From positions 1-54,320 of IMG/VR virus record IMGVR_UViG_3300031673_000059: a stretch of DNA of 54,320 nucleotides, one strand, 5' to 3'. A model generated the notes under the pieces. That model did not search any database. It had not been told where the DNA came from and was given only the letters and a program-made list of their open reading frames with translations. This DNA comes from a virus. Both the position numbers and the translations under genes were made by a program. Shown in pieces: positions 1 to 39,259 of this stretch (positions within the stretch are counted from its first letter, which is position 1; each line of letters starts with the position of its first letter).

Positions 1-1046
1 CTCAGAGGCCCTCCGTCGCGCTTGGTGGGCTTGTTTTCGGCCCTCTTGAGGTCAGAGACCTGCTCCCGGTCTCCGACTAGCTGGGCCTTCTGACGAGCTC
101 TCTCGGCCTCCAGCTGCTCTTTACTCATGCCCATGGTGTCCTCCTCGGGTAAACCATATGGTGCACCCAGGTCCTCGTTTGGTGCGGCGCGGAACTCACG
201 ATGTTTCTCTTCGGAGTGCTGTGCCTCCGGCGGTTCGGGTGCAGGCCCAAGAGACGCGAGAGGACGTAAGTCCGATCGTGTCCTCAGACCGTTAGGTCTG
301 TCTCCCAATACATCTTCTAGTTCATCTGTACAGGGAAGCAGTGTACTGCCCGAGGGTCGGGCAGTACACTGCCATAGGTCAGGCAGTACACTGCCATAGG
401 TCGGGCAAGACACTGCCATACCTATAGCAGTGTCTTGCCCGAGGGTCGGGCAGTGTACTGCCCGAGGGTCAGGCAGTGTACTGCCCGAGGGTGAGTCGTC
501 CAGACTCGCCATCTCAGGCACTTGCGGCCCAGGACCATCACCCAAAGCATCGCCCAGGCCATCGGCAACGGCGTCATCGGCAACGGCGTCCAAATTCCCG
601 CTCGCCCACCCAGCTGGTCTGCCAGTCCGCTTCGGCCCCTTCCGCTGCTTGAATGATCTCCGCTGAAGCTCTTTGACCCCGCCTGACTCCTCGACGTAGG
701 CGATCGCGTCGACCGCTCTGTTGCTCAGTAGGCGCTCCGGGCAGTTGATGGGCGGAGGCTCTACCAGCGTGTAGACCGGGTATCGCTTGTCGTTATCGCG
801 GTAGCTGATGGAGATCAACCCGAGTCGTTCGAGGTTGCGAAGCGAGTCGAAGATAGTTCGCTCGGCTACCCTGAGCTGTCCAGCCAGGGCACCCTTCGTA
901 AGCCTGCAGACCCTCGGTCCGTCGGTCTTCTTGAGGCAGTAGGACATCAGCAGGGAGTAGAGCCTGAAGTCATGGCTGGTGAGGTCTGGGCAGCGGATGA
1001 TGTCGTCGAAGATCTGTGTGAAGAGGCGATTCTTGTCCTTGCTCAT
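1..1046 (-). CDS. winged-helix DNA-binding protein, replication-initiator-like; partial (leaves window at left edge)
   Basis: The minus-strand ATG at 1046 overlaps the TGA of ORF 1043..1369 (ATGA). Translating codon by codon I find no stop down to position 1, which explains its absence from the ORF track. The N-terminal ~95 aa (MSKDKNRLFTQIFDDIIRCPDLTSHDFRLYSLLMSYC...RTIFDSLRNLERLGLISI) are paralogous to the two upstream wHTH ORFs. The frame reads through the iteron array. An in-frame GGAGG+ATG at 134 is a possible nested start. Confidence 0.6.
   Translation of the reverse strand, partial: MSKDKNRLFTQIFDDIIRCPDLTSHDFRLYSLLMSYCLKKTDGPRVCRLTKGALAGQLRVAERTIFDSLRNLERLGLISISYRDNDKRYPVYTLVEPPPINCPERLLSNRAVDAIAYVEESGGVKELQRRSFKQRKGPKRTGRPAGWASGNLDAVADDAVADGLGDALGDGPGPQVPEMASLDDSPSGSTLPDPRAVHCPTLGQDTAIGMAVSCPTYGSVLPDLWQCTARPSGSTLLPCTDELEDVLGDRPNGLRTRSDLRPLASLGPAPEPPEAQHSEEKHREFRAAPNEDLGAPYGLPEEDTMGMSKEQLEAERARQKAQLVGDREQVSDLKRAENKPTKRDGGPL
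300..336. promoter_or_regulatory. locally AT-rich tract flanking the iteron array (possible DNA-unwinding element)
   Basis: cccaatacatcttctagttcatctgtaca is clearly more AT-rich than its surroundings and abuts iteron 1. Confidence 0.3.
337..493. repeat. iteron array: seven 14-bp near-palindromic boxes at 22-bp phasing
   Basis: Boxes are GGCAGTACACTGCC or its complement GGCAGTGTACTGCC; the two central copies are GGCAAGACACTGCC and its complement. They start at 337, 360, 382, 404, 426, 449 and 472. Copies 2-4 and 5-7 are inverted around a dyad near 421/422. Spacers are of only two kinds (CGAGGGTC, ATAGGTC). Confidence 0.9.
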
Positions 1047-1369
1047 GCGCCGCCTGCACTAGCAAGCTGTCGAAGGACGCTGTAGCCGTTATCTAGGTGC
1101 AGGAGCTCGATGTTCAGCCACCCAGGCGACCGATGGACGATCTTGATGAGTTCGAGCTCAGAGAGACGGCGGAGCGCCCTGCGGACGGTCGACGCGCTGT
1201 AGTTGGTATCGGCGGCCACGGAGCTCACGCTCCCGCAGTCAACCGGGTTGTGATAGTGGGCCCGGTATTCGGCGGCGATGTAGAGGTAGACGATCTTCTC
1301 GGAGGGCGAGAGATCGGCGTCCCGGATAATCCGGCCAGCTACCTCGGTCATCGTCCTATGCTTAGCCAA
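1043..1369 (-). CDS. winged-helix HTH protein (paralog 2 of 3)
   Basis: ORF track, 108 aa. The pattern RIIRDADLSPSEKIVYLYIAAEY...STVRRALRRLSELELIKI is shared with its neighbours. It is coupled to both neighbours by overlaps. Confidence 0.7.
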   Translation of the reverse strand: MAKHRTMTEVAGRIIRDADLSPSEKIVYLYIAAEYRAHYHNPVDCGSVSSVAADTNYSASTVRRALRRLSELELIKIVHRSPGWLNIELLHLDNGYSVLRQLASAGGA

Positions 1370-1757
1370 CGAACTGCTCCGACGAGCTGTTTAGTCGAAT
1401 CAGTCCAGTGTAAGGACCTCGCCGACTCTCCCGGCTAATGAAGCCTCTCTCCTCTAGCCGCGCGAGCACCTCGCACACGGTTCGCTTCGTAAGCCCCGTG
1501 CGCTCTGCGAGAGTTTCGAGGCCGTCGTCGATCTCCTTCGCGCTCGTGCAGAGGTCCATGAGGACCGCGAAGACGCGGACGTCCGACGACCTCATTGACC
1601 GGTCAGACACAAGCCTTCTCGGTACGCGGAGATAGCCCTGTTCACTTCGTTGCATGTGAACCCTCAAGGAGTGGTTAGTGGTGAACTTGACGCCCCGACC
1701 GGCGCAGAAAGAGTCTAGCTTGACCTGAACGGATTTCAAGTCTTTTCCGGCGCGCAT
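1362..1757 (-). CDS. winged-helix HTH protein (paralog 1 of 3)
   Basis: ORF track, 131 aa, with RVFAVLMDLC...LAERTGLTKRTVCEVLARLEERGFISR. An alternative start at ATG 1655 (GAGGG 5 nt upstream) aligns better with the paralog N-termini. Confidence 0.6.
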   Translation of the reverse strand: MRAGKDLKSVQVKLDSFCAGRGVKFTTNHSLRVHMQRSEQGYLRVPRRLVSDRSMRSSDVRVFAVLMDLCTSAKEIDDGLETLAERTGLTKRTVCEVLARLEERGFISRESRRGPYTGLIRLNSSSEQFVG

Positions 1758-1784
1758 CGAAACCCCGACCTATCACCTACATAG

Positions 1785-1792
1785 GTTCTACC
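1785..1792 (-). promoter_or_regulatory. GGTAGAAC -10-like motif, 27 nt upstream of ATG 1757
   Basis: Plus strand reads gttctacc. The TAG inside the motif is the stop of the frame-B ORF ending at 1788. Confidence 0.45.
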
Positions 1793-2231
1793 GGCAGCGC
1801 CAGGCTGCGCGCATGGTCTCTGGACGAACCATGTCGAAGTTCTCTCTGTGTCGCCTTATGCACGGCTCCCTGCGGAGAACACGGAGGCGGGTCGTCCAAC
1901 CGCCACCACGAGCAACATACGCATCAGTGATGCTGTATATGGCGTTCAGGTAAGCCCCACGAACTGGCGGCTCGGCGACGAAGTCGAACGTCATGATCTG
2001 GTAATCGACAACGCCGCCCTGCTCATCAATCGATCCACGACCGCTTTGAGAGATACCGACGCTCGAACCTTCGTTGAGCGCAGCCCGGAACCGCTCAGCG
2101 GCCTCGCCACGCAGCTCGAAGGCCGACGTCATCGTGCTCGCCCACGATTGGGTTCCGGTGACCGGGTTCTGGTTCGACGCAGCACCAGTAGGTGCCTCGG
2201 GCAGCGCGACTCTTACCTCGTCTGCTGATGT
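1788..2231 (-). CDS. +1-frame continuation of the gp23-like module of the FGE fusion protein (frameshift, error or pseudogene)
   Basis: The C-terminal part of track ORF 1788..2516 (...SADEVRVALPEAPTGAAS...MTSAFELRGEAAERFRAAL...) continues the order of conserved blocks seen in the capsid paralogs. Over the same DNA, the tail of frame A is Arg-rich and junk-like. Confidence 0.4.
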   Translation of the reverse strand, partial: TSADEVRVALPEAPTGAASNQNPVTGTQSWASTMTSAFELRGEAAERFRAALNEGSSVGISQSGRGSIDEQGGVVDYQIMTFDFVAEPPVRGAYLNAIYSITDAYVARGGGWTTRLRVLRREPCIRRHRENFDMVRPETMRAAWRCR

Positions 2232-5200
2232 TGTCGAGGTAGAAAAGCATTCCGGCTCGGTTGTCGAGTGGTTGAAGAGGGGGCGGCCAGAAGGGGTTGG
2301 AGAGTCCCTGTCTGACGAGGGGTCCTGCGAACCGGAGGAATGCTGAGTCGCTGCCCCCCTCAGCGACGACTCGGTCCATGTGTCGCTGGTGGTTTTCGAG
2401 GAGCATGCCTGTAAGAGCTCTTGTGAAACTGTCGTCGACTCCTTCGAGGAGGGGGGCCCATTTCTGGGTGTAGCGGTTGACGATGCTCTGAAACTCTGGT
2501 GCCTCAGCAGCGGCACCTCCAGGCCGCTCTTGGAGTAACTCCTGCCTCAACCTCGTCATGGTAGCGAGGATCTCTGATGGTTGAATCGGCGGTGTCGCAG
2601 ACCCAGTTGAGTCCTCGGACGACGCGACCGTCGTCCACACCTCGCTCGGGGGTGCCGTCGTCGATGGTGGCGCAGAAGACGTTGAGTCCGAGTAACTCGG
2701 GTCCGGGAGCGCCGCCGACGATCCGGACCCACTCAGAAAATCCGAGTCACCTCGCTCTCCAGGCTGACCTGGGCCCGAGCCAGCAACGATGTTCACCGGC
2801 TCGGATGATCCTGGAGTCGAAGGCCTCTCCATGCTGGTAGGACTGCCAGTTACCTCCTCGGACGGTGCAGGATCCGAACCCCATCTGCTCGATGGCTCGG
2901 TCCATGACGGATCGTAGGTAGATTCGACCGCTGGTGTTCCGGGGGGCGATTCCGAAGGTTCCCTCGACGATGTGTGTGAGTGGTCTTGGGTTGACCATGA
3001 TGGCCGCCGCTTCTGCTCTTGTGATGTTTGGGCCGTAGAGGGCCCTAACCCAAAAGGGACGTCATCGGGCCCTCCATGCCGCCCGTGGACCGGCCGTAAA
3101 GTCGGGGAGTTCGGGATCGAGCCACCAGGAATCGGCCCGATCCCACCCCTGCCAGTCTCCGCCTCTGAGCGTGTAGGCGTCGATCCCGATGTAGTGCGCG
3201 ACTTCGGGCGAGACTCGCATCCAGTTGGCTGGGTTTCTGACGGTGAGCTCGTAGATTCGTTGGGCCGCCGCCGCGACCCTGGCGATAAAGGGAGGTCACC
3301 TTGCTCTCCAGGCGCACCTGAGTCCGACGTCTCTGACGTCGTTTCCGGCACCTCGCTGCCGTCTGGCGACGAAGCCCTCGTCCTCTCCTCTGAGGACCTT
3401 AGGTCGATCCTCGGCGGTGATTGCGATGTAGGGGGCGTAGATGAACCCGGTGTCAAGGACTGTGTCGCCCTTGTAGCCGAAGAGGAACCCCGTCCTGTCT
3501 CCGTCCTGGGACTGGTCAACATGGATGAGGCGGCCGCCGTCTTGGGATGAGAATGGGGGCTCTGGGTGGACCGTCCACCCAGGCCTGATCCGAAACCCGA
3601 GTCACCTCGCTCTCCAGGCCCCTCGGAGTCCGAGTCCGTGGTCGAGGTCCCAGCCCCAGACTCTGCCGGTGTCGAGGCCTGGGTCGGCGAGTTCGAGCCA
3701 GCAGATCCCCCGGACCCTGATCCGGGGCTGGAAGGGTCCGAGCCGACCGGCGTTGCGTCCTCCGCGTAGGGGCCCAACCCCATCCCGAGGTCGGAGTAAG
3801 CGTCCATGTGCTCGTAGTCAGCGTACCGGTCGAGCAGCTGCCCGGAAGGAGACATGAGACTGTCGCTCAAGGACCCCGAGCTGGTCTCGCCATCCTGGAG
3901 ATCCCTCTGGGGGTCGTCCGACATTCCAACTGATGGACTTGAGGATGTATGGGATACCGTCCTGGTAGAAGATGCCTCCGAGGTAGCAGCGTCCGAGTTC
4001 GCCGAGCTCGATCTCGCTGCATGGGTTGACCCCGAAGGCTCCGTAGGGTCCGAGCTAATGAACCCTGGCTCTCCAGGCTGTCCTGACGCCTCCTCGGTCA
4101 ATGTTGTGGCCCCTGAAGGAGGCGCCTCGCTCCCAATCCCGGGGGGACTCATCCCAGGAGTAGCTTCGGATGAGGAATCGATGATGTTGCATGCGCTCTC
4201 GGACGGAGAGGCCTGCGTAGGGTCCGAGCTAGGCTCTCCAGGCTGGTCGGAGTCCTGCGTCCTGGGCCCCTCCGACTGCTCGTCCGATGTTGCTGACGGG
4301 GAACGGATAGGTCCCGCCGTTGAGATGATATGTAGGAGGGAATCCGTAGTCAGGAACGGGGTTGATGTAGGGTCCGGGCGTTGCTCGCCGTTAGCGATGT
4401 AGCCATTCTCGGGCAGGTCCTCGACCCCTCGAACCCACTGGCACCTGGTCCATTCGAAGACGTTCCCGCAGTTGTCGTGGAGCCCCCAGTTGTTCGGATC
4501 CTTCAGGCCAACTGCCTTGTGCCCGTCCTCAAACTCGCCGCCGAACCAGGCGATCTTCTTTAGGTCCTCATCCGTGTCGCCGTTGGGGTAGCGCGTAGTC
4601 GCTCCGGCCTTAGTCGCGTATTCCCACATCGCCTCAGAGGGGAGCTGAAAGCCGACCCGCTCACCCTTCTCGTTCCAGAGCCAGGCCTGGTAGGCCGCCT
4701 CGACCTCTGCTGAGAACACCAGCGCTTGGTTCTGGACAGGCAGAGGCATGATGTCCGTGTTGACCTGTTGCTCCCACTCTCTCCACGTCAGCGTGAAGGT
4801 CTGATCTGAGTGTGTGAACTTGCAGTTGGTCAACCGTGCAAAGTCCAGCCGGTTGATGAAGTCCTCGACCTCACGGCACCGATCCCAGGAGACGCTCTCA
4901 ACAGGGTGCTCCCCCCACCTGCGCCCATCAGAGTCCTTCAACTCCATGCGGGTCGCAGGCCCGAACGGCGCGTCACCCATGCGGGTGACGTTAAGCCCCT
5001 CCTCGACCATTTCGGTCGTAGGGAAGTGACTCGGGAACTCACGTGTGACGCGGTACCACTCACGCCCGGTCCACGGGTACTTCGCCATCAGGAATGGCTC
5101 GTCGAAGGTCCGCTTGACCTGTTGCTGGGCCGTCTCATCATCAGGGTCCGCAGTGGGACCCATCATGAACTCACCCGAAGGGATCAGAACGAAGATCATC

Positions 5201-5400
5201 CCCGTCGTCTTGTGCTGATACTCAGCCAGGCCTTGGGAGTTGAGCCCGAGACACGAGAAGAGCTCAGTCTCCTCTACGCGCAGTCCGTAGGGGACGTCGT
5301 TTCCGGCCCTGCGGATTCGCGTGATGTAGTCGCCGCGATCGGCCGCGTCGCCTGTAGCCTGCCAACGGCGTTCTGCTGCTCTTAAAGCGGCGTCTGACAT
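2095..5400 (-). CDS. FGE-sulfatase (SUMF1/EgtB/PvdO-type) domain protein with long S/P/T/G/E/D-rich disordered tether and C-terminal gp23-like N-arm module
   Basis: ORF track, 1101 aa. FGE signatures: IPSGEFMMGP, HPVESVSWDRC, LPSEAMWEYATKAG, NNWGLHDNCGNVFEWT. The C-terminal QKWAPLLEGVDD..LLENHQRH..LQPLDNRAGMLFYLD matches the T4 gp23 N-terminal region and the paralogs at 33.8-35.8 kb. AGGAG lies upstream of ATG 5400. Confidence 0.8.
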   Translation of the reverse strand: MSDAALRAAERRWQATGDAADRGDYITRIRRAGNDVPYGLRVEETELFSCLGLNSQGLAEYQHKTTGMIFVLIPSGEFMMGPTADPDDETAQQQVKRTFDEPFLMAKYPWTGREWYRVTREFPSHFPTTEMVEEGLNVTRMGDAPFGPATRMELKDSDGRRWGEHPVESVSWDRCREVEDFINRLDFARLTNCKFTHSDQTFTLTWREWEQQVNTDIMPLPVQNQALVFSAEVEAAYQAWLWNEKGERVGFQLPSEAMWEYATKAGATTRYPNGDTDEDLKKIAWFGGEFEDGHKAVGLKDPNNWGLHDNCGNVFEWTRCQWVRGVEDLPENGYIANGEQRPDPTSTPFLTTDSLLHIISTAGPIRSPSATSDEQSEGPRTQDSDQPGEPSSDPTQASPSESACNIIDSSSEATPGMSPPGIGSEAPPSGATTLTEEASGQPGEPGFISSDPTEPSGSTHAARSSSANSDAATSEASSTRTVSHTSSSPSVGMSDDPQRDLQDGETSSGSLSDSLMSPSGQLLDRYADYEHMDAYSDLGMGLGPYAEDATPVGSDPSSPGSGSGGSAGSNSPTQASTPAESGAGTSTTDSDSEGPGERGDSGFGSGLGGRSTQSPHSHPKTAAASSMLTSPRTETGRGSSSATRATQSLTPGSSTPPTSQSPPRIDLRSSEERTRASSPDGSEVPETTSETSDSGAPGEQGDLPLSPGSRRRPNESTSSPSETQPTGCESRPKSRTTSGSTPTRSEAETGRGGIGPIPGGSIPNSPTLRPVHGRHGGPDDVPFGLGPSTAQTSQEQKRRPSWSTQDHSHTSSREPSESPPGTPAVESTYDPSWTEPSSRWGSDPAPSEEVTGSPTSMERPSTPGSSEPVNIVAGSGPGQPGERGDSDFLSGSGSSAALPDPSYSDSTSSAPPSTTAPPSEVWTTVASSEDSTGSATPPIQPSEILATMTRLRQELLQERPGGAAAEAPEFQSIVNRYTQKWAPLLEGVDDSFTRALTGMLLENHQRHMDRVVAEGGSDSAFLRFAGPLVRQGLSNPFWPPPLQPLDNRAGMLFYLDNISRRGKSRAARGTYWCCVEPEPGHRNPIVGEHDDVGLRAAWRGR

Positions 5401-11113: not shown

Positions 11114-12922
11114 ATGTCTGAAGATATCGCTCGACGCATCGAAACCGTCGAGAGCCTGCTCGGGTTCAATCTGCGCAGCTACCAGAACCAGGCGCTGACC
11201 GCCATCGGTCAAGGAAAGAACGTGATCTTGCACGTTCCGACCGGCGGCGGAAAGACGGTTGCGTTTCAAGGCGCTCCCTACGTGTCCCCCCATGATGGGA
11301 TCACGGTGATCCTCTATCCGCTGAGGGCTCTGGTGAAGGATCAGACTCGTCGCTTCAAGGAGATCGGTCTACCGTCCGTGACGCTATATGGGGAGACTCC
11401 TCCTAAAGACCGTCCGGCTATCTATGAGAGGATCGCCAACGGTAGCGCCAAGATCCTCCTTACGACTCCCGAGTCGTTCGACATGAATCGCCGCCTCCAG
11501 GCGGTACTCACTGAGCGAGGCGTGTCAGTCCTTACGGTTGATGAGGCCCATGCCTACGAGGAGTGGGCCGACGGCTTCAGACCGACATACCGGCGGGCCG
11601 GGCACGTCGCCCAGCGTGTAGGTGTGAAGCAGTTCCTCCTCTGCTCGGCGACCCTGACATCCAAGGGGTTCAAGACGGCTAGGGAGACCATCGGCCAGGA
11701 CAACTGGACCATCGTTCAGGTCCCGCCCATCAGGTCCAATCTCGTATACCGAGATCTGAGTGAGCCCAGCAGTGAGATCCTCTGTCGCGCCGTTCGCGGG
11801 GATGGTCTGGAAGCTCCTGGGATCGTCTTCTTCACGACGGTCAAGTGCCTGAACGAGACAGCCGACTTCATCGAACGGAAGACCAGGCGAAAGGTCCTTC
11901 GCTACAACGGTGGTATGACCGGCAAGGACCGCAGGGAGGCCCAGGATACTTTCATGTCCGGCGACCACTGGATCTTCGCTACCAAAGCGTTCGGCATGGG
12001 CATCGACAAGGACAACATCAGAAACATCATCCACTTCCAGCTACCCAATTCGATTCTCTCATACGCCCAAGAATGCGGAAGATCGGGTCGAGACGGCCAC
12101 GAGTCGACCTGTTTTCTGACCCAGAGCGAGGACGGCAACGCGGCCCAGTTCCTGATCAGCATGAGCGTCCCATCGATCAATCAGGTGCGCAGGGTCTGGA
12201 ACCTCCTTCAGACCCACTCCCTGAACTACGCCGACTGGTTTGATGTTGACTGGCCTGAGATCGCCAGCAGGGCGGATTTCTCGATCCAGCTGGTCCAGGC
12301 CTGTGTGAGCTGGCTGTTTACCGGAAAGATGATCGAGAAGAAGCAGAAGAGGCTCAACTGGAAGTTCACGATTCACGCTGATTCCGATGAGAAGGCCATC
12401 AAGTACAAGAGAAAGACGCCAGAAATCCTCGACATGCTGCGCGCGGAAGCGATGGTCGAGCAGGGACCTTCAACCTTCGAGCTGCGGCCTGAGTTACTGT
12501 CCGACAGTGTGGGCCAGGTGTTCGTCGGCTGGAGGGCGAAGCTTCGGAAGATGGTCGAGCTCGGGATCATCGAGATCGATGAGCCTCCTAAGGCGAAGTC
12601 TCAGTATCGATTCCTCCACAGGAGTTTTCACTTTGCCCAGGGCGAGGAGCAGCTGACTAAGTCTCGCTCAAGGGCGTTCGATCGTCTGGACGACATGCGA
12701 CGGCTGCAGGCCGCCCCTCCTCATCAACGGCGAAATCTCATGGAGGCGGCCATCTCTCTCAAGCTCGGCAACATCGATGGGCTTGAGATCATGGACGGTC
12801 AATACGATGAGCCGGTCGCGCCATCCAAGCCAGCCCAGAAGAAGAAGAAGAGCGAATCCACCGACCCGTTCAAGTTCGATGGGGACGGCGATGACGACGA
12901 CCCGTTCGTCATTCCCTTCTAG
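11114..12922 (+). CDS. recQ: RecQ-family DEAH-box DNA helicase
   Basis: Motifs are HVPTGGGKT, TVDEAHAYEEW, ATKAFGMGIDKDNIRNIIHFQLP and QECGRSGRDG. The start could be ATG 11114 or GTG 11108. Confidence 0.9.
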   Translation: MSEDIARRIETVESLLGFNLRSYQNQALTAIGQGKNVILHVPTGGGKTVAFQGAPYVSPHDGITVILYPLRALVKDQTRRFKEIGLPSVTLYGETPPKDRPAIYERIANGSAKILLTTPESFDMNRRLQAVLTERGVSVLTVDEAHAYEEWADGFRPTYRRAGHVAQRVGVKQFLLCSATLTSKGFKTARETIGQDNWTIVQVPPIRSNLVYRDLSEPSSEILCRAVRGDGLEAPGIVFFTTVKCLNETADFIERKTRRKVLRYNGGMTGKDRREAQDTFMSGDHWIFATKAFGMGIDKDNIRNIIHFQLPNSILSYAQECGRSGRDGHESTCFLTQSEDGNAAQFLISMSVPSINQVRRVWNLLQTHSLNYADWFDVDWPEIASRADFSIQLVQACVSWLFTGKMIEKKQKRLNWKFTIHADSDEKAIKYKRKTPEILDMLRAEAMVEQGPSTFELRPELLSDSVGQVFVGWRAKLRKMVELGIIEIDEPPKAKSQYRFLHRSFHFAQGEEQLTKSRSRAFDRLDDMRRLQAAPPHQRRNLMEAAISLKLGNIDGLEIMDGQYDEPVAPSKPAQKKKKSESTDPFKFDGDGDDDDPFVIPF

Positions 12923-12932
12923 GCGTACATAG

Positions 12933-12966
12933 CAAGACGGCCGCGACCTGCGCCGCAGCCGTCTTG
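12933..12966. terminator. hairpin (9-bp stem caagacggc/gccgtcttg) after recQ
   Basis: Read directly from the sequence. It lies between convergent genes. Confidence 0.4.
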
Positions 12967-12969
12967 CGT

Positions 12970-12997
12970 GGACAACTAGGACTGCTCCTAGTTGTCC
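12970..12997. terminator. bidirectional terminator hairpin (perfect 11-bp stem, 6-nt loop)
   Basis: ggacaactagg actgct cctagttgtcc. It overlaps the stop codon of the convergent gene 12988..13554. Confidence 0.6.
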
Positions 12998-13554
12998 GCC
13001 GACACGACGTCCGTAGACGCCGTTGCGGTCGCAGCCTCGCTGCCTGCGTAGTAGCGAAGCCCCCTACGCTGACCCTCGGTTCGGATGTCACCGTTCTCCC
13101 GGGCAGAGTTCAGGATCCGACGGATCGTGCCCTGCGGAAGCTTGGTGTGGCCCTCGATGTCGGTCATGTTGCAGCCCTCGTTCTTCCGAACGAAGCCAAT
13201 GATCAGGTCAGGCCTGACCGGCTTTCGCTTGGTCGACTTCGCGACCGCTGGATTGGCCTTGCTGACCTTCTCCTGCCGCGTGGACTGCTTCTTGGTGACC
13301 TTCGGCTTCGAGGTCTTCTTGGTGACCTTCTTGGTGACCTTCGGCTTCGAGGCCTTCTTGGCGGCCGTCTTCTTCTTCTTGGCGGCCGTCTTCTTGGCGG
13401 CCTTCTGAGTGGTCACCCTGGGGGCTACCGCCTCCCCTAGCGCTACCGTCGTGGCCTTGTGGGCCACCCAGGTGTCGCCGACCCTGAAAGGCTTCACGCC
13501 CTGCGCCATCGCTGGCGTGATCGTGAAAACGACCGGTCCGCTCTGATTAGTCAT
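12988..13554 (-). CDS. lysine-rich histone H1-like / winged-helix DNA-binding protein
   Basis: The central region is KKAAKKTAAKKKKTAAKKASKPKVTKKVTKKTSKPKVTKK, encoded by tandem DNA repeats at about 13290-13400. The C-terminal wH-like segment is IIGFVRKNEGCNMTDIEGHTKLPQGTIRRILNSAREN. GGAGG precedes the ATG. Confidence 0.8.
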   Translation of the reverse strand: MTNQSGPVVFTITPAMAQGVKPFRVGDTWVAHKATTVALGEAVAPRVTTQKAAKKTAAKKKKTAAKKASKPKVTKKVTKKTSKPKVTKKQSTRQEKVSKANPAVAKSTKRKPVRPDLIIGFVRKNEGCNMTDIEGHTKLPQGTIRRILNSARENGDIRTEGQRRGLRYYAGSEAATATASTDVVSADN

Positions 13555-13825
13555 GAGAACACTTTCCTCCGTGTTGGATGGTGGTAACGATTACGGGACA
13601 GTTCAGTGTGGTCGGTGTAGGCGTATGGCGTGTCGTCCGATCAACATCGGATCCGCCTTTTGACTGAGTATTAACTGCCGTCACCGATGGTGACTCTACA
13701 CATCTGTTCCATGTCTCGCCACTAATACGGAAACGATTTCTCTCCGCAGCGCAGATTCCATCGGTCCTACAGGCGGCGGCCGATGATCGATGTGTATAAG
13801 TAGTTGCCATGGTGACAGGTTCGGG

Positions 13826-14347
13826 CTAACCCCGGCTGGACCTCTTTCGGGTCGGCCGGGCTACCGCCCTCTTCTTCTTCTTCTTCTTCTTCGTCTTGAC
13901 CTTCATCTGCCGGGTCCGCGCGTAGCTGATCTTCTTCTTGCTCTGCCGAAGTTCCAGCACGTCGTTCAGCCGCTCCTCGATGAGTCGGGTCCACTCGTCT
14001 CCTCGTGACTGACTGTCCTTTGCGATGAGGAACTCAGTCCACAGCACTCGGGTCACATCTGAGAGCGGCTGCTCTCGACTCTTTGCGTAGTCCCGGAGCT
14101 TGTCGGCGACGATGACCGGAACGATCGCGCCCATCGACTGAACAGGTCTCGGGAAGAGCCTACCGAACGGGGCGAGCTCGACCTGCTTTTCACCTGCCTC
14201 GTGAACTTCGAGTTTGACCAAGACCGTGACGGTCCGCCCTCTCTTCTCCTCGGCCTTCTTGGCCCTGGAGATCGCGTTTCGGTTGTCGGCGAGTTCGCTC
14301 TGCGTGACTTCGATCGTCGTCGCATCGAGAGAGTAGTTCAGCTGCAT
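13826..14347 (-). CDS. hypothetical protein with poly-Lys tail
   Basis: ORF track, 173 aa. GGAGGGG precedes the ATG. Confidence 0.65.
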   Translation of the reverse strand: MQLNYSLDATTIEVTQSELADNRNAISRAKKAEEKRGRTVTVLVKLEVHEAGEKQVELAPFGRLFPRPVQSMGAIVPVIVADKLRDYAKSREQPLSDVTRVLWTEFLIAKDSQSRGDEWTRLIEERLNDVLELRQSKKKISYARTRQMKVKTKKKKKKKRAVARPTRKRSSRG

Positions 14348-14393
14348 GGCCCCTCCATCCGTTCATTTGTGGATTTCAGCCTGATTCGAGCCT

Positions 14394-14401
14394 TTTATAC
14401 C
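14394..14401 (-). promoter_or_regulatory. GGTATAAA motif, 46-nt leader to ATG 14347
   Basis: Plus strand reads tttatacc. Confidence 0.4.
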
Positions 14402-14554
14402 TGATTTCTCTTTCGACGATCGCCTCCGATGCCCTAAATAAGTGGAAGATTCTACATGTCATTAGCAGGTGATGACTCGGCCAAGTCCAAGTAACGTAAC
14501 GTCTTAAAGAAAATCTCAGGAAAGCTTGATCCTCACTCTCAGATCCGTATAACA

Positions 14555-14885
14555 GGGGCACTCAGCGGTTGTTGGGTGTTGCGGGTTGCTTTCGGGCGGC
14601 GCGCAGTCGAGACCTGGGACGGACATCGACTTCGGTTGATGGAGAGAAGGGTCGAGGGCGACGACTTGTGGTCGGAGGTCATACTCTGCTGCAGGAGACG
14701 GGCTCCTCAAGGGTGAGTCTCTTGAAGGCGGCGCCGAGTGGAGGCGACAACTAGCCGAACGGGTAATGCCGTCGGCGGGTGCAGCAGACCTTGTTTCCAG
14801 CCACTCTAGGGCGGGCAGAGCAGGGACGAAGACAACCGGCGGGACACGAAGAGGGCGGAGCAGGGAGACCTGTTCCGCCCTTCTT
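14555..14885 (+). ncRNA. candidate structured non-coding RNA or long structured 5' UTR (unclassified)
   Basis: Lies within a 636-nt gap that has only junk-like ORFs. There is a 7-bp helix capped by a UUCG tetraloop (14624-14641) and several other GC helices. It ends in the hairpin agggcgga/tccgccct (14852-14881) followed by tcttc. Confidence 0.25.
14852..14881 (+). terminator. terminator-like hairpin (8-bp stem, 14-nt loop)
   Basis: agggcgga ... tccgccct followed by tcttcac. The U-tract is weak. Confidence 0.35.
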
Positions 14886-14983: not shown

Positions 14984-16183
14984 ATGTCTGGATTCGCGAC
15001 AGCGGGTACTGGTTCAGAGGGTGTTCTAAACGCCGTTTCGCACTCTGGAATCGACCACACGGGTATTCTCGGGGTCGGATCCGGAGGTGGCGACGCGTTT
15101 CCCATCGGGTGCATGGTCCCCTTTGGGGCCCTTGTCTCCGCCATTCCAGCCGGGTGGCTGGCCTGTGACGGGTCGGAGTATGGGCGTACAGGCGGAGACC
15201 CGAGCCCACAGCCCACGCTGTTTGGAATCATCGGCACCGCCTGGGGCATCGGTGACGGGTCCACTACCTTCAACGTCCCAGATCTCCGACACCGTGGTGT
15301 TGCCGGCATCAACGACGGAACACTACCTGCCGGCCCCGACGGTGGGTTCACCACTCGATCCCTTGGACAGCTCGCCGGCTCCGAGACCCACTCCCACACC
15401 GTCAACAACCACTCCCACACCATCTCGTCAGACGGAGCTCACACCCACACAGGCACTACTGATCCCAACGGTGTCAACATTATTGAGAGCTTGGCACCCA
15501 CTTACCCTGGTAACGACGGCATCAACTCGCGTCACACCCACACGTTCACCACCGGCGGCGCATCTCCTTCGACCCACTCTCACGGCTCGGTCACTGGACA
15601 ATCCAACCCGTCTACCAACGCGCAGCCTGGGTTCGGTCCGACCGCGTTCTGCCCGTTCATCATCAAGGCTGTAGCAGTTGGCGGTGGGGCTGGTGGTATC
15701 TCGAACCAGGTCAACGCAGGTCCTCTCCAGGGACCCCAGCCCACGATCAACTACATCGAAGGCCCCGGGATCTCGATCACGGCGGTGGAGAACATTCCTC
15801 AGAACCGCAACGACGTTACGATCAACGCCACTGGGGCGTTCGCGACACTTCCCTTCGGGTGCACCTTCGTCACTCCGAACAACTACGCAGTCGCCCACGG
15901 CGATGGTGCTCAGACTGAGATTGGATCTCTTACGGTGATCACTCAGACAGCATCACCGATTGCCGGCGGAACGGTCACACTGTCGTGGAACGTCTCTTTC
16001 TCCGGAGGAGATGCTCGCGTGTTCGTGAATGGGGTTGCCGCCGGCACACCGGTCACCCTCTCCACAGCTAACGGCGCTAGTGCGCAAGCGATTGCCGTCG
16101 CGGCCGGGGACAGGATCGCGGTCGAGTATCAGACCGGAACAGCGCCCGGACCTGCTCTCTTTGAGGTACACGTAGGCCCGTAG
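14984..16183 (+). CDS. phage tail-collar domain fibre protein (MdpB-like)
   Basis: The collar signature is GCMVPFGALVSAIPAGWLACDGSEY...LFGIIGTAWGIGDGSTTFNVPDLRHRGVAG. It is followed by HSHTVNNHSHTISSDGAHTHTG repeats. Confidence 0.85.
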   Translation: MSGFATAGTGSEGVLNAVSHSGIDHTGILGVGSGGGDAFPIGCMVPFGALVSAIPAGWLACDGSEYGRTGGDPSPQPTLFGIIGTAWGIGDGSTTFNVPDLRHRGVAGINDGTLPAGPDGGFTTRSLGQLAGSETHSHTVNNHSHTISSDGAHTHTGTTDPNGVNIIESLAPTYPGNDGINSRHTHTFTTGGASPSTHSHGSVTGQSNPSTNAQPGFGPTAFCPFIIKAVAVGGGAGGISNQVNAGPLQGPQPTINYIEGPGISITAVENIPQNRNDVTINATGAFATLPFGCTFVTPNNYAVAHGDGAQTEIGSLTVITQTASPIAGGTVTLSWNVSFSGGDARVFVNGVAAGTPVTLSTANGASAQAIAVAAGDRIAVEYQTGTAPGPALFEVHVGP

Positions 16184-16186
16184 GTC

Positions 16187-16636
16187 CTAGTAGTTCTCAA
16201 ACTCGGCGTGGCCCTCATCGATGAGTGTGTCGCCTAGGCTCTTCCAGCCGCCCTCTACCTTGTATAGGCACACAATTAGCCAACGGCCATATTTGCCCTT
16301 GTCGCCGCTCTTGAAGGACCAGACGCGGAGCTTCTGACCGACGCCTAGGAGCTCCTCGGCGCGCTGCTCGGCCAGAGCACCCATCTCCTTCTCCTTGCCC
16401 CGCGTCTCCCAGGCGTCGACGCAGTCGTCGCTCTTGTCGTCTGGGGTCAGGACGGCGCCCTCGGCCAGCAGGCGGCAGTAGGCTCGGACATCGATCTCGA
16501 AGCCGATGTCAATTCGAAGGCGGAAGCTATCGCCGTCGATGACTCCTTCTAGTTTGCCCACATCCGGCACGACCTCAGCCTCTCTCCAGGGTGTATCGAA
16601 AGGCGTCGTCTCTTCGTCGGTCCACAGCTTGCCCAT
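16187..16636 (-). CDS. staphylococcal-nuclease (SNase/thermonuclease)-like protein
   Basis: GVIDGDSFRLRI...CVDAWETRG...GALAEQRAEELLGVGQKLRV...DKGKYGRWLIVCLY...LIDEGHA follows the order of SNase-fold blocks. Confidence 0.65.
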   Translation of the reverse strand: MGKLWTDEETTPFDTPWREAEVVPDVGKLEGVIDGDSFRLRIDIGFEIDVRAYCRLLAEGAVLTPDDKSDDCVDAWETRGKEKEMGALAEQRAEELLGVGQKLRVWSFKSGDKGKYGRWLIVCLYKVEGGWKSLGDTLIDEGHAEFENY

Positions 16637-16679
16637 GAGCGGCCTCCAGGTGTCTGTAGGCTACATCATTAGGCGGGTA

Positions 16680-16687
16680 GGTAGAAT
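16680..16687 (+). promoter_or_regulatory. GGTAGAAT, 5 nt, ATG 16693
   Basis: ggtagaat agggt atg. Confidence 0.55.
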
Positions 16688-16692
16688 AGGGT

Positions 16693-17058
16693 ATGAAGAC
16701 CGGCGCGAGGAAGGCAGTCGTCCGTAAGCTACGGAAGATGGTGAACCGGCATATCGGCAACATGGTCGATGAGAAGTTCGAAATGGGCTGCCTGGCGGCA
16801 AGTCTGTTCCCGGACTGGGTTGAGAGCGACTACTCCACCTTTGATCTTTACCTGTTCCACGGCTGTGGAATCCCATGGAACATCGCCAGTCGCCTGGAGA
16901 CGATGGCTCACACCTACTACGAGATTCCATCTCTTCAGATTTGGATGCAGGTGGGATACACAAGAGCCGCCCAAGCAGCCGGACAAGGCCGAGAGGGCCA
17001 AATCCGAGCGCTGCTTGAAAGCGGCTCTAATGTGCTAGACGTGATGACGTTGATCTAG
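16693..17058 (+). CDS. hypothetical protein; C-terminal NVLDVMTLI
   Basis: ORF track, 121 aa. Confidence 0.65.
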   Translation: MKTGARKAVVRKLRKMVNRHIGNMVDEKFEMGCLAASLFPDWVESDYSTFDLYLFHGCGIPWNIASRLETMAHTYYEIPSLQIWMQVGYTRAAQAAGQGREGQIRALLESGSNVLDVMTLI

Positions 17059-18140
17059 ACGGCGATCGGCGCTTCGGTGCAGACCGTGGTGAGGATCCTG
17101 GTGCAGACCCGGTAGGGGTCGCAGTTGGCTCCGGGTCGCCGATCTTCGATGTAGCCGTAGCCCTGCTGGGCTACCTGGGCGGGGATGCGGATCGAGCAGC
17201 CGCGATCACTGTCACCGACCTTGAACGTGTTGATGTCGCACGTCTCGTGCTTGCCGGTCAGGCGCTTCTCCAGGCCGAAGCCGTAGTCTGCGATGTGCTC
17301 GGCGTGGACCTCCGACATCGCCTTGACCGCCGCCGCGATAGCCGACTTGCCGGTGCCTGGGTCTCGCATCTCCTTCGTGGAGAAGTTTGTGTGAGCGCCC
17401 GCACCGTTCCAGTCGCCTTGCTCAGGCTTGCAGTTGAGGGTGGCCGAGATGCCGTAGTCCTCGCCGATCCGGAACAGGAGCCAACGCGCAAAGATCAGGT
17501 GATCTGCGACTGTGAGAGGGTCGGCTGACTCGCCCGGGAACCCAGGACGATGACCGATCTGGAACTCCCACTGACCCAGCATGACTTCGGCATTGATGCC
17601 GTAGATCATCAGCCCGGCCCTCATGCAGGCGCTGAGGTGATCCTCGACCAGCTTGCGGCCCGCAACCTCGTCAGCTCCGACGCCGCAGTAGTAGGGTCCC
17701 TGAGCGCGCTGCGGGAGTCCCTTCTCCGGCCATCCAAGGGGGCGGCCAGTGTCTAGGTTGTAGAGCGTGTACTCCTGCTCGAAGCCGAACCAGGGATCGT
17801 GGTCCTCAGCGACCGACATGATGTCCCGCAGACGGCTGCGAGTGTTGGTCTTGTGCGGCATGTCGTCTGGAGTGGTGACCTCGCACAGGACCAGGAAGTT
17901 GGCGCCGCCGCGAATCGGGTCGTTGACGACGCGAACCGGGGTGAGCACCTGGTCTGAGTTGGACGTCCCCGCCTGATTGGTCGACGAGCCGTCGAAACCC
18001 CAGACCGGAAAGGACGTGTAGTCGATGACGCCCTTCTGATCATCGGGTAGATAGACCACACGGGTCTTCGACCGAAGGTTCTGGACAGGGATGTCGGCGG
18101 ATCCGCCGTCCATCCAGATGTATTCAGCTCGTACGTGCAT
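17055..18140 (-). CDS. glnII: glutamine synthetase type II (eukaryote-like GSII)
   Basis: 361 aa. Blocks are AEYIWMDGG...LRSKTRVV, FGFEQEYTL, YYCGVGA, INAEVMLGQWEFQIG, GAGAHTNFS, RLTGKHET and SIRIP...YIEDRRPGANCDPY. Confidence 0.92.
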   Translation of the reverse strand: MHVRAEYIWMDGGSADIPVQNLRSKTRVVYLPDDQKGVIDYTSFPVWGFDGSSTNQAGTSNSDQVLTPVRVVNDPIRGGANFLVLCEVTTPDDMPHKTNTRSRLRDIMSVAEDHDPWFGFEQEYTLYNLDTGRPLGWPEKGLPQRAQGPYYCGVGADEVAGRKLVEDHLSACMRAGLMIYGINAEVMLGQWEFQIGHRPGFPGESADPLTVADHLIFARWLLFRIGEDYGISATLNCKPEQGDWNGAGAHTNFSTKEMRDPGTGKSAIAAAVKAMSEVHAEHIADYGFGLEKRLTGKHETCDINTFKVGDSDRGCSIRIPAQVAQQGYGYIEDRRPGANCDPYRVCTRILTTVCTEAPIAV

Positions 18141-18226
18141 AAGGCCCTTCCTGACTAATGGGGTTTGAAAGGGCAGTTTATAGCGTACTTAGGGCCGCCT
18201 CGTCGAGCCAGCTCTTATGATCGGGC

Positions 18227-18421
18227 TCATTCACCGATCAGAGCGGCGGCCAGCGTGTTCATGAACGGGCCCACCACAGCATCGTTGCTGAGTCGACGAG
18301 CCGTCATCACCACGCGTGGCATATCGATGTGGTCCTCCGCGCATAGAGAGCGGATGATGGCTTGAGCTTCCTCACCTTTGAGTGAGGCCAACCAACGAAG
18401 CAGGTGTTCTTCAGGTGTCAT
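18227..18421 (-). CDS. hypothetical small protein
   Basis: MTPEEHLLRWLASLKGEEAQAIIRSL... AGGAG lies 5 nt before ATG 18421. The longer track ORF 18227..18877 is junk upstream of this point. Confidence 0.55.
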   Translation of the reverse strand: MTPEEHLLRWLASLKGEEAQAIIRSLCAEDHIDMPRVVMTARRLSNDAVVGPFMNTLAAALIGE

Positions 18422-18429
18422 AGGGTCTC

Positions 18430-19611
18430 CTAGTCTATTGATCCGACGATCCGATCGAGCACACCGACCATGTCGAGCATTGTCCCTAGGTATTCGATCG
18501 CCTTGTCTTTCCCCCAGGCGTGGAGCAGACACTCCCTCTCCTTGGGGCCGCCCTTGCAGGTTACCCCGTCCTTCTCGCCGAGCGCCTTGACTACGCTCGA
18601 ATCGAACGCCTCGTTGTTCTTCCTCTGCATCTTGATGTTGATGACCCTCTTCCGAGGGCCGATGGTGATGGTGTAGTCGCCGTAGGCGATGGCGTACCAA
18701 GGCTCGTTTTTGAACTGGTCCTTGTAGTAGCCGTTGGGGAGCTCCGTCCTCGTCTTGTTGGCCAGTCCGACCGCCTCGAAGATCTCGTTGAAGAGCTTGG
18801 CGTGCCGGAGCTTGATCGGGTCGACCGGGACCTCGATTTCCTGACTCCGCCCTGCGTCCACCGCCTCCCAGGTCCACTCGCCGTCGACCTTGTTCTGGAT
18901 CCAGACGCTGACCTCATCGCCGGGAACCTGGGGAGGGATAGGGGACGCAGGGTGCCCAGTCTGGTACCAGGACTTCTTGCCGGCCGCCGCGTGGGCTTCG
19001 AGCGCGTCTAGGATCTCCTGGGAGTGTCTCTTTACCTCGTAGAGGGCGTTCTCGGCCATGTTCTTGAGAACTGCCATCCGGTCGATGGCGTCAGGGGCGT
19101 CCATCATGCCCCATTCCGAGCCCGGGTCTGACACCCGCCTCTTCCAGTTGGGCTCCCACTGACCGATGGTTTTCAGGAGGCCGAGGAGCAGAGGACCCTT
19201 CTTGGGCTCGGCTACCCCGCCATCGAGAAGCGGAAAGACCAGCATCCCGATCGGGCCTCCGGCTCCGAGTTCGGCCAGCCTAGCGACAGCAGTGTTCCGA
19301 TCTGCCTCAGGGGTCAAGGGGGTGACAAGCGCTCTGAGCTGAGAGACCTCTTCGTCGAAGGCGGCCTTGTTGGCCCGCCAGGTCTTGAGGACCGTGCCGT
19401 TGAACCAGTCGGCCACCCTCTCGGAGAGACCCTCGCCCGGCTTCCGCATGAGCATGAAGAGGTTCCCGCCGTCGGCGGCCATATGGACCCCGAACCGGTC
19501 GCAGCCCTTGCACTTGAAGTTGCTCTGCGACATCCCGCCGAAGGAACCACCGTGACCCTGCCACTTAGGCGCGGCGCAGATACAGGACGGTACGTTCTCT
19601 GGCAACGCCAT
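18430..19611 (-). CDS. hypothetical protein; C-terminal GVLDRIVGSID
   Basis: ORF track, 393 aa. TAATG overlap with the NADAR gene. Confidence 0.7.
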   Translation of the reverse strand: MALPENVPSCICAAPKWQGHGGSFGGMSQSNFKCKGCDRFGVHMAADGGNLFMLMRKPGEGLSERVADWFNGTVLKTWRANKAAFDEEVSQLRALVTPLTPEADRNTAVARLAELGAGGPIGMLVFPLLDGGVAEPKKGPLLLGLLKTIGQWEPNWKRRVSDPGSEWGMMDAPDAIDRMAVLKNMAENALYEVKRHSQEILDALEAHAAAGKKSWYQTGHPASPIPPQVPGDEVSVWIQNKVDGEWTWEAVDAGRSQEIEVPVDPIKLRHAKLFNEIFEAVGLANKTRTELPNGYYKDQFKNEPWYAIAYGDYTITIGPRKRVINIKMQRKNNEAFDSSVVKALGEKDGVTCKGGPKERECLLHAWGKDKAIEYLGTMLDMVGVLDRIVGSID

Positions 19612-38654: not shown

Positions 38655-39259
38655 GCTTCGTCTTCCTTGTCCGATTTGTCTAGGGCGTGGACGATCCGGT
38701 CTAGGAGCGGCATCGTCTCGTCTTCCAGCTCCCACTCGTGGACCTGACACATCATCCGGCATACTTCGTGGAAGTCGCTGATCCGCCTCTTGCCCCAGTA
38801 CTTGTCCCGAATGACGGCGGTGGCCGGAGCCTCCCAAGAGTAGTTGTTGTCCGTCCAGCAGTAGTTCTGCTCGGTACCCTCGGTCCATTGGTGGATCGTC
38901 GCCTGCGTGTCGGACATTAGCTGGAGGCCGTGCGCAACCTCGATCGCGTGGGCTCGCATGAGCTCGACGTTTGGCACGTTCCGCATGATGATTGTGATTA
39001 CCTCGCCGCTCCTGTCGTGAGCGACCGGGTCGGTCTTGTGGAGGACCAACTTGCTCACGTCCCGCCAGGGGATGTGGAAGCACTTCTCCAGCATCGCAAG
39101 TCGGTCGTAACCATCATCAGGCTTGTGTCTGAAGCACAACGCCTCGTAGGCACCGTCCTCTCTCCGATATAGCTGGGTGCAGAACCGACCTCCTCTGCCG
39201 CCCTCTTGGTGGCACTTGGTGCAGTGAAGCTCGCCCCTGAAGACCTTGCCGTTTTCCAT
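38651..39259 (-). CDS. hypothetical Cys/His-rich protein; C-terminal PLLDRIVHALDKSDKEDEA
   Basis: ORF track, 202 aa. First gene of an 11-gene coupled block. Confidence 0.7.
   Translation of the reverse strand: MENGKVFRGELHCTKCHQEGGRGGRFCTQLYRREDGAYEALCFRHKPDDGYDRLAMLEKCFHIPWRDVSKLVLHKTDPVAHDRSGEVITIIMRNVPNVELMRAHAIEVAHGLQLMSDTQATIHQWTEGTEQNYCWTDNNYSWEAPATAVIRDKYWGKRRISDFHEVCRMMCQVHEWELEDETMPLLDRIVHALDKSDKEDEA

Follow-up and report, generated by a model that had tools for sequence, protein, structure and literature searches.

The DNA analysed here is a 54,320-nucleotide stretch of a virus (IMG/VR record IMGVR_UViG_3300031673_000059, positions 1 to 54,320), referred to below at its full length as the window. 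At its left end, on the minus strand, lies the first part of a gene for a winged helix-turn-helix (wHTH) protein, called the initiator gene here, and the reading frame of this gene runs through an array of phased, near-palindromic boxes (iterons). A previous reading of the window, made from the sequence alone, had proposed that the array is a replication origin or an auto-operator. The parts of the initiator gene and of the candidate origin are the following, positions being those of the window.

3 to 1046, minus strand: initiator gene, partial, codons 1-348 of about 521; its open reading frame (ORF) leaves the window at position 1 (stop-free translation, full-length homolog P0001, family alignments).
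612 to 1046, minus strand: N-terminal winged-helix DNA-binding domain, amino acids 1 to about 145, ending at a KRTGRP motif, with recognition helix AERTIFDSLRNL (AlphaFold2, fold matches, weak PHROG matches).
135 to 599, minus strand: part of the ORF that encodes a predicted disordered linker, amino acids 150-304, and carries the cis elements (model confidence, lost GC signal at codon position 3, protein unconserved while DNA motifs are conserved).
472 to 485, no strand: iteron box 1 in gene order, GGCAGTGTACTGCC on the plus strand.
449 to 462, no strand: iteron box 2, GGCAGTGTACTGCC.
426 to 439, no strand: iteron box 3, the variant AGCAGTGTCTTGCC.
404 to 417, no strand: iteron box 4, the variant GGCAAGACACTGCC, an inverted pair with box 3 around 421/422.
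382 to 395, no strand: iteron box 5, GGCAGTACACTGCC.
360 to 373, no strand: iteron box 6, GGCAGTACACTGCC.
337 to 350, no strand: iteron box 7, last in gene order, AGCAGTGTACTGCC.
303 to 336, no strand: candidate DNA-unwinding stretch, AT- and purine-rich, CCCTGTACAGATGAACTAGAAGATGTATTGGGAGA in gene direction (lowest-GC window, near-invariant GGTACAGA start).
285 to 300, no strand: inverted repeat 1, CAGACC-TAAC-GGTCTG in gene direction (same offset in 11 of 13 loci, compensatory changes).
262 to 273, no strand: inverted repeat 2, GGAC-TTAC-GTCC in gene direction (centre 25 nt from that of inverted repeat 1, covarying stems).

The box array is real, non-random and confined to one place in the 54-kb window. 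Its seven near-palindromic 14-bp boxes occupy positions 337-485, with starts at 337, 360, 382, 404, 426, 449 and 472 and start-to-start spacings of 23, 22, 22, 22, 23 and 23 bp. The consensus reads GGCAGTACACTGCC in one orientation and, as its reverse complement, GGCAGTGTACTGCC in the other; the central two boxes are variants of it. With the two orientations written as A and B, the plus strand has B, A, A, A, followed by B, B, B. The orientations differ at two central bases only, each box being a near-palindrome. The central variants form a 20-nt inverted pair that is 95% complementary and centered at 421/422. When up to three mismatches were allowed, the box pattern gave 15 strand-matches in the window, against 4.5 ± 2.4 in shuffled sequences (15 was reached in 0 of 100 shuffles); 12 of the 15 fall within the array, and the other three (at 43181, 50440 and 51936) are at chance level. 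A search against Rfam returned no known RNA family, only miRNA-hairpin matches below threshold that are caused by the inverted boxes. The sequence-only reading had seven 14-bp boxes at a strict 22-bp phasing, arranged in oppositely oriented groups around a dyad near 421. The boxes are as it described them and the phase is 22/23 bp; the grouping is present in the window and is specific to the lineage, since relatives have all-direct or alternating boxes. As the boxes are near-palindromes themselves and relatives show other orientations, the grouping around the dyad is probably inessential.

The open frame through the array, also claimed by that reading, holds to the end of the window: from ATG 1046 the minus-strand frame has no stop down to position 3, and the other two minus-strand frames have many. 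None of the six frames of the window's own box contains a stop, and the array has the box in all three frames. The complete product is known from the homolog P0001 (locus L001), which is 97% identical and has 521 amino acids. In the family alignment the protein falls into three parts, i.e., a conserved N-domain (1 to about 145), an unconserved middle (about 150-350) and a conserved C-domain (about 355-490). AlphaFold2 models the N-domain confidently as a winged helix, with a predicted local distance difference test (pLDDT) score of 82-96 for residues 10-130, and the C-domain confidently as helical, while the segment encoded by the repeats and their flanks, residues 150-304, has a pLDDT below 50. 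The acidic linker DAVADDAVADGLGDALGDG that had been noted is present, and the peptide motifs GSTLP, AVHC and QCTA recur in the translation of the repeat region. The GC content at codon position 3 is about 0.8-0.9 over 1046-640, drops to 0.4-0.57 over 600-150 and recovers after 146. Thus, the repeat-bearing stretch is open, yet unlike ordinary coding DNA. The only PHROG matches of the initiator are phrog_8102 and phrog_270, both "replication initiation protein" (E about 2e-4); the "O-like" PHROG matches belong to two small wHTH paralogs encoded upstream, not to the initiator. Among solved structures in the PDB, Foldseek placed the N-domains of RepA_N plasmid initiators (5kbj, 4pql, 4pt7) first for the N-domain, followed by MarR-type domains.

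A profile search of 1.84 billion cluster representatives (50% identity) found 63 relatives of the initiator at E ≤ 1e-3. Homologs beyond P0001 have 29-47% identity and come from metagenomes, one on a 355.7-kb contig (GCA_902729895.1) and one on a 203.5-kb IMG/VR contig; relatives lie on contigs of 203-369 kb. No match to window positions 1-1800 was found by blastn in 50,697 GenBank phage records, and one genome per GTDB species (bacteria and archaea) yielded no relative, hence no prophage and no clue to the host. All 13 related loci examined carry 2-7 near-palindromic boxes at the same place, the 2-box case being a contig end, and the 48 spacings among them are 22 bp (19), 23 bp (17), 44-46 bp (8) and 32-35 bp (4). 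Wherever both domains are present (10 of 10 loci), the frame is open from the N- to the C-domain, the two domains are in the same frame, and 3-7 boxes lie between them. The sequence kept open in this way is not conserved and extends over about 450-500 nt, in proteins that are 29-47% identical. The box itself differs by lineage.

Box GGCAGTACACTGCC: the window, L001, L003 and L009.
Box TGGCAACCAGTTGCCA: L002, L006 and L019.
Box ATGAACTCCAGTTCAT: L004, L014 and L018.
Box TGGAACTGGAGTTCCA: L011.
Box of the CCCACACTCCAGT type: L012 and L013.
Box CTGCCACTCAGGTGGCAG: L015.
Box GCTCGCCCAGACGAGC: L017.

In two relatives that were checked, the lineage's own box is likewise restricted to its array. Furthermore, L003 has exactly the box of the window despite 42% protein identity and different spacers, which marks the box as a selected DNA site. 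Reading frame and orientation vary among the boxes, and their period is not a multiple of 3; therefore the selected unit is the DNA and not the peptide. If the repeats were selected as a peptide repeat and their DNA symmetry were incidental, one would point to the recurring GSTLP, AVHC and QCTA motifs and to the sum of 22 and 23, since 45 bp are 15 codons and give 15-residue peptide repeats in some relatives. However, one and the same box occurs in three reading frames and in either orientation, the region it encodes is predicted to be disordered and is unconserved as protein, the boxes are palindromes, and a similar array lies in non-coding DNA in L017, so that we give this explanation hardly any probability. 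A related observation concerns box ATGAACTCCAGTTCAT, which holds a TGA in one frame (L004 1780-1863, L014 152-280). In the L004 and L014 arrays, alternating 23- and 22-bp (or 45-bp) spacings put the boxes in only two of the three frames, and the TGA frame is therefore never used. A comparison of the window with L001 was uninformative as a test of origin constraint, as positions 172-1800 have 2 differences overall.

Across the relatives, the array, its AT-rich flank and an inverted repeat are conserved while the box sequence varies by lineage. The order in gene direction is boxes, AT-rich stretch, inverted repeat 1, inverted repeat 2, a further conserved motif and an internal start. The AT-rich flank had been noted beside the boxes by the sequence-only reading, and it proves to be the lowest-GC 40-nt window of the gene (40% GC vs. 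60% gene-wide), beginning inside the last box and running into 303-336; the lowest-GC window lies at the corresponding place in L001-L004 and in lambda O. In an alignment of 13 loci that spans the region between the last box and the internal start, the purine- and AT-rich stretch opens with a nearly invariant CC(C)GGTACAGA. Inverted repeat 1 has the general form NNNCC-TAAC-GGNNN across loci, and inverted repeat 2 has a 4-nt centre with a stem of 4-9 bp.

In 8 loci, the distance between the centres of the two inverted repeats is exactly 25 nt. The gapless alignment of 8 loci has 47 columns, with 15 pairs and 120 cells. Pairing holds in 85% of the cells, and 8 of the 15 pairs (19 cells) have changes on both sides; the observed values were reached in 0 of 500 shuffles. 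As a control, sliding the partner by 1-3 columns gave 24-39% pairing. Some of the compensations fall at synonymous sites (the third codon base of Gly; CTG vs. TTG for Leu). Only one G-T pair occurs among the 120 cells, and this near-absence argues for a palindrome or hairpin at the DNA level rather than an RNA structure. The fold energy of 225-345 as single-stranded DNA is ordinary (z = -1.0), and it is the covariation that makes the case for the inverted repeats.

Two more elements follow in gene direction.

177 to 197, minus strand: conserved motif GAGTTCCGCGCCGCACCAAAC, encoding FRAAPNE (unique in the window; conserved across loci, including the intergenic copy L017 5940-5953).
132 to 149, minus strand: Shine-Dalgarno-like GAGGAGGA (149-142) and in-frame ATG (134-132), a candidate internal start for the C-domain alone (9 of 9 loci).

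The motif after inverted repeat 2 has the cross-locus form TGTACGCCGCGCCGCACCAAA, and motifs of the GTTCCGCGC type are conserved both where they are coding (FRAAPNE) and where they are non-coding (L017). The extended form GTTCCGCGC(C/G)(G/A)CACC(A)AA stands 35-60 nt before the internal start and was also seen at L015 3689-3702. A specialised promoter and a binding site are both conceivable for the motif at 177-197. Being single-copy in the window, the motif is not a phage promoter that recurs in the 54 kb, and a sigma-70 promoter scan found no match at the motif or near the internal start.

The gene neighbourhood is one of replication. The gene directly downstream of the initiator encodes a DnaC-like helicase loader of 215 amino acids (PHROG phrog_50, E = 3.6e-19). 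In L001 and L002 the order on one strand is HerA-like ATPase, FGE-sulfatase-domain protein, wHTH-A, wHTH-B, initiator, loader and DnaB, followed by a Toprim primase, a ResIII helicase and a UvsX/RecA-like recombinase. Elsewhere in the window lie a DNA ligase gene, helicase genes and major-head-like genes; the element is a large double-stranded DNA phage and probably a huge one, its relatives being huge phages.

The layout was compared with that of phage lambda, in which the origin lies in the middle of gene O between a DNA-binding N-domain and a loader-recruiting C-domain, and in which iterons, an AT-rich stretch and an inverted repeat with a 4-nt centre follow one another in the same order as here (PMC7466680). 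The lambda iterons (39034-39118) are also phased and have internal dyad symmetry, with spacings of 20, 24 and 23 bp against 22/23 bp in the window; after the AT-rich stretch comes GTCAGAGAATTC-TGGC-GAATCCTCTGAC, with 12-nt arms and a 4-nt centre. In both systems the helicase-loader gene is the next one after the initiator gene. The lambda-origin parallel drawn by the sequence-only reading is therefore borne out by the same element order along gene O (PMC7466680). There are also differences. The initiator has no significant sequence similarity to O and no match to Pfam Phage_rep_O; there are seven boxes instead of four, two covarying inverted repeats instead of one, and 40% GC in the AT-rich part instead of 20%; the loader is DnaC-like and not lambda P; two extra small wHTH genes lie upstream and an internal start is conserved; and the host genome here has about 60% GC, the relatives being phages of 200-370 kb.

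A second likeness is to the RepA_N initiators of plasmids (pSK41 and pTZ2162 Rep), whose winged-helix N-domain is the best solved structural match, with weak E-values (4e-3). In pSK41, four Rep boxes lie centrally in rep, the origin-encoded central part of the protein is a deletable linker, and the C-domain recruits the DnaG primase (PMC5703833). The boxes of the window likewise lie in the central, poorly conserved part of the gene, and the predicted disordered segment that they encode compares with the dispensable origin-encoded linker of pSK41 (PMC5703833). However, the convergence on a poly-A tract that is described for RepA_N iterons (PMC7145576) was not seen, the Pfam RepA_N model (PF06970) gives no match, the C-domain is unrelated by sequence, and the element is a phage rather than a Firmicute plasmid. 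The G38P/G39P/G40P module of SPP1 shows no sequence relationship, and what weak match there is concerns the loader and not the initiator. The Rep_3 (WH1-WH2) initiators of iteron plasmids were considered and rejected, given that no Rep_3 match was found, that the model has one winged helix with an all-helical C-domain, and that the iterons lie inside the gene. We file the locus as the same kind of system as lambda and pSK41, in a new protein family.

Taken together, we consider it likely that the array is the core of a theta-type replication origin of the lambda or pSK41 kind, located inside the gene of its own initiator, which would bind the boxes and cause the origin to fire there. The origin proposed in the sequence-only reading is supported by the anatomy conserved across about a dozen loci and by the loader, DnaB and primase genes downstream, and the auto-operator that it offered as the alternative is not needed. 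An array that serves as an operator or roadblock, through which a wHTH protein controls transcription of the downstream replication operon, would also have palindromic boxes, and it would suit three HTH genes in a row, a position within an operon transcribed one way, and a conserved motif (177-197) about 60 nt before the internal start. Operators, however, seldom come as 3-7 phased copies together with a conserved low-GC stretch and inverted repeats, and here the order equals that of the lambda origin element by element, in a gene whose product has a two-domain initiator architecture and lies beside loader and helicase genes. Autoregulation is moreover compatible with origin function. As the array, the AT-rich stretch and the inverted repeats all agree with an origin, we see little probability in a purely regulatory array.

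Which protein would bind the boxes was approached by comparing the three wHTH proteins among lineages. The two upstream genes are as follows.

1362 to 1757, minus strand: wHTH paralog A (TrmB/MarR-like), 131 amino acids from ATG 1757, or 97 amino acids from ATG 1655 as called in relatives (domain search, relatives).
1043 to 1369, minus strand: wHTH paralog B (HTH_36, 108 amino acids), whose stop overlaps the initiator start as ATGA at 1043-1046 (Pfam PF13730, E = 1.7e-7).

In the initiator, the recognition helix AERTxxDSLRNL is common to three lineages with the same box (P0001, P0002, P0005), and lineages with other boxes differ in this helix, with SERTIFNSTRSL in L002 and SVRGVTK(L/I)(L/I)RRL in the two ATGAAC-box lineages. 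The wHTH-A protein, by contrast, is 80-84% identical, with an unchanged helix, across lineages with different boxes (counterparts at L002 9395-9694, L004 648-941 and L003 3810-4100), where the adjoining initiator is only 34-47% identical; being near-constant while the boxes differ, wHTH-A cannot set box specificity. The wHTH-B gene is absent from L003, a relative with the window's box. Because the initiator's helix tracks the box, wHTH-A is constant and wHTH-B is missing in L003, the initiator's own N-domain appears from these sequence comparisons to be the best candidate for the box-binding protein. The sequence-only reading had left binding to one or more of the three wHTH proteins; the third fits, and the first and second are disfavored. 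The wHTH-A protein may instead recognise a conserved motif of the origin region other than the iterons.

The hint of a nested product starting at 134, also part of that reading, has gained in substance. The column of ATG 134 holds ATG or GTG in each of the nine loci examined, every one of the four valines there being GTG, and a GGAG-type motif stands 6-10 nt upstream although the residues it encodes differ. Among database proteins, several comprise only the C-domain and start at the internal-start residue; those of L018 and L019 were rejected as split genes, being contig-end artefacts in which the contig starts inside the array and the N-part is missing. A natural split is found in L017, a 73-kb contig (region 4809-6693). 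There, the upstream gene encodes a different HTH protein of 273 amino acids that ends at TGA, and the C-domain is a separate gene of 230 amino acids that starts with MPETPEQQ, exactly at the internal-start residue. In the 370-bp intergenic gap between them lie four GCTCGCCCAGACGAGC boxes spaced 23 bp apart, together with an AT-rich stretch, an inverted repeat with the conserved CTCG after it, and a TGTTCCGCGCGACACC motif. As the same cis layout is here non-coding DNA, the elements act as DNA, and the free-standing gene indicates that the C-domain can function as a separate polypeptide. The prediction of a nested C-domain product from the conserved start is thus well supported. Replication proteins made in two sizes by an in-frame internal start are familiar from T7 (gp4A/4B), f1 (gII/gX), phiX174 (A/A*) and R6K (pi). 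The initiator resembles them in having a conserved in-frame internal start with its own ribosome-binding site and a predicted second, C-terminal product, and it differs in that the known cases have no origin between the two starts.

These observations bear on whether the origin belongs to two proteins, i.e., a DNA-binding N-part and a C-domain made from 134, the open frame between them being tolerated and not required. In that case the long read-through protein would not be the initiator at work. The two-gene arrangement of L017, with its stop before the array, is what such a system would look like, and the internal start codon with its Shine-Dalgarno motif (9 of 9 loci), the loss of coding bias across 600-150 and the predicted disorder of the linker agree with it. 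On the other hand, all ten loci with the family N-domain keep the frame open over about 450-500 nt, where stops or frame changes would be expected without selection, and in the window, stops are numerous in both other frames of this stretch. In addition, the N-terminal gene of L017 has no detectable homology to the family N-domain (hhalign probability 1.7%), so that L017 looks like a domain replacement rather than the ancestral state. We therefore regard an origin served by two separate proteins as unlikely, and the origin inside a single two-domain initiator is retained.

The neighbouring genes also speak to a partition (centromere-like) or packaging (pac) site that lies within the gene for the protein that binds it. 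Pac sites in small-terminase (terS) genes are a known precedent, plasmid centromeres have phased repeats bound by wHTH proteins, TubR is among the weak fold matches, and a gene for a HerA/FtsK-like ATPase lies 4-5 kb away. Beside the array, however, there is no ParA, TubZ or terminase gene but loader, helicase and primase genes; the 521-amino-acid protein has PHROG matches only to replication initiators, which together with the replication-gene neighbours led us to reject the small-terminase precedent; and an AT-rich stretch followed by inverted repeats suits an origin. A partition or packaging site accordingly has very little probability.

If the array is the origin core, initiation might proceed as follows. 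Dimers of the winged-helix N-domain of the initiator (about 521 amino acids) would bind the seven near-palindromic boxes, and with the boxes about two helical turns apart they would lie on roughly one face of the DNA and form a complex like the O-some. This complex would stress the adjoining AT- and purine-rich stretch at 303-336 until it opens. The helical C-domain, tethered by the origin-encoded disordered linker, would bring in the DnaC-like loader and DnaB, and primase would follow; the role of the C-domain is guessed from its context and from weak fold matches. The inverted repeats at 285-300 and 262-273 would act at the DNA level, as hairpins on the opened strand or as symmetric protein sites that aid loading or priming, and the internal start at 134 would probably also give the C-domain alone. 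The binding, unwinding, recruitment and internal translation in this scheme are what we infer from the anatomy, conservation, covariation and gene context that were observed directly.

Several points weigh against the origin as described. A huge phage may use several origins or recombination-driven replication, and a UvsX-like gene lies nearby. Cumulative GC skew over 64.8 kb (the window plus 10.5 kb from L001) is noisy and has only a shallow local minimum 1-2 kb beyond the array; in the window alone its amplitude is at noise level, with no usable extremum. With no more than about 60% AT over some 35 bp, the candidate unwinding stretch is far weaker than that of lambda, and the covariation set is small, with 8 sequences, some of them related. 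Concerning the protein, the Foldseek matches to RepA_N are weak (E = 4e-3 to 1.6e-2, with a template modelling score of about 0.5 on the target), as are the fold matches of the C-domain, and no Pfam match lies above threshold, the sole one at E ≤ 0.01 being HTH_Crp_2, below its cut-off. Membership in the lambda O or RepA_N family is not established by sequence, and structure suggests it only weakly.

A more tentative extension, which we hold to be possible rather than probable, is that about 450 bp form a self-contained "origin cassette" with more functions than that of lambda, comprising the linker, the iterons, the unwinding element, two structure-forming DNA signals 25 nt apart, and the control region of the nested product with its ribosome-binding site. 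In such a cassette the frequency of firing might be set by the free C-domain, through competition or cooperation with the full-length initiator for the DnaC-like loader and DnaB, wHTH-A might recognise the GGTACAGA stretch, the CC-TAAC-GG core or TGTACGCCGCGCCGC, and L017 might be a case in which the DNA-binding head was swapped and the C-domain gene kept.

Some further features were recorded in and around the gene.

492 to 507, no strand: small inverted repeat TGAGTC-GTCCA-GACTC, just 5' of the first box in gene direction (sequence conserved in at least 6 lineages).
560 to 589, no strand: perfect 15-bp tandem duplication, CATCGGCAACGGCGT twice, encoding DAVAD DAVAD at the start of the acidic linker (repeat scan; the L001 copy has one mismatch).

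The small repeat beside the first box, TGAGTCGTCCAGACTC (GAGTC-N5-GACTC), occurs without covariation in the lineages and is absent in L009, L015 and L017. Between the window and L001, 28 of the 30 differences over 1-1800 lie in a 118-nt patch at 54-171, just past the internal start, where the peptides are MGMSKEQLEAERARQKAQLVGDREQV and MGMSKEELAALRARQKALRPGARGQV; judged from its sequence, the patch looks like a recombination mosaic or a hypervariable segment. Upstream, the sole sigma-70-like match in 1-1900 is at 1712-1739 on the minus strand (TTGAAA-16-TAGACT), just upstream of ATG 1655, and this predicted promoter position fits a single operon of wHTH-A, wHTH-B and initiator. The ORF at 2095-5400 (minus strand) has 1101 amino acids, with an N-terminal FGE-sulfatase domain followed by about 700 residues of low-complexity sequence rich in S, P, T and G; its tail has repeated PGERGDS(D/G)F-like motifs and many overlapping ORFs in alternative frames, and the L002 counterpart has 471 amino acids. 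The DnaB gene (12252-14879) and the ResIII helicase gene (16074-18809) of L002, the relative on the 355.7-kb contig, contain inteins (Intein_splicing, LAGLIDADG), and the L001 versions are intein-free.

To our knowledge, the origins of huge phages that are known only from metagenomes are largely unmapped, and a literature search found nothing that describes this initiator family. The layout itself is textbook. What appears to be undescribed so far is the protein family and the fact that huge phages of a high-GC setting carry it, as well as the covarying pair of inverted repeats at a fixed distance, and the conserved internal start with a natural split variant. For annotation, the locus suggests a simple rule: an origin may be sought where a wHTH gene lies ahead of genes for a DnaC-like loader and DnaB and has, in its unconserved middle, 3-7 palindromic boxes with 22/23-bp phasing. 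As a candidate minimal replicon, the region could also serve to build vectors for a host of roughly 60% GC. The natural variants, from the changes in box and helix and the covarying repeats to the split, non-coding version, point out which parts act as DNA. For a small clade of phages, represented by 63 cluster representatives, the locus thus provides a concrete candidate for the origin and its initiator, and the design of lambda and pSK41-type plasmids, with the origin inside the initiator's linker, would recur here in a family with no detectable sequence relationship to either.

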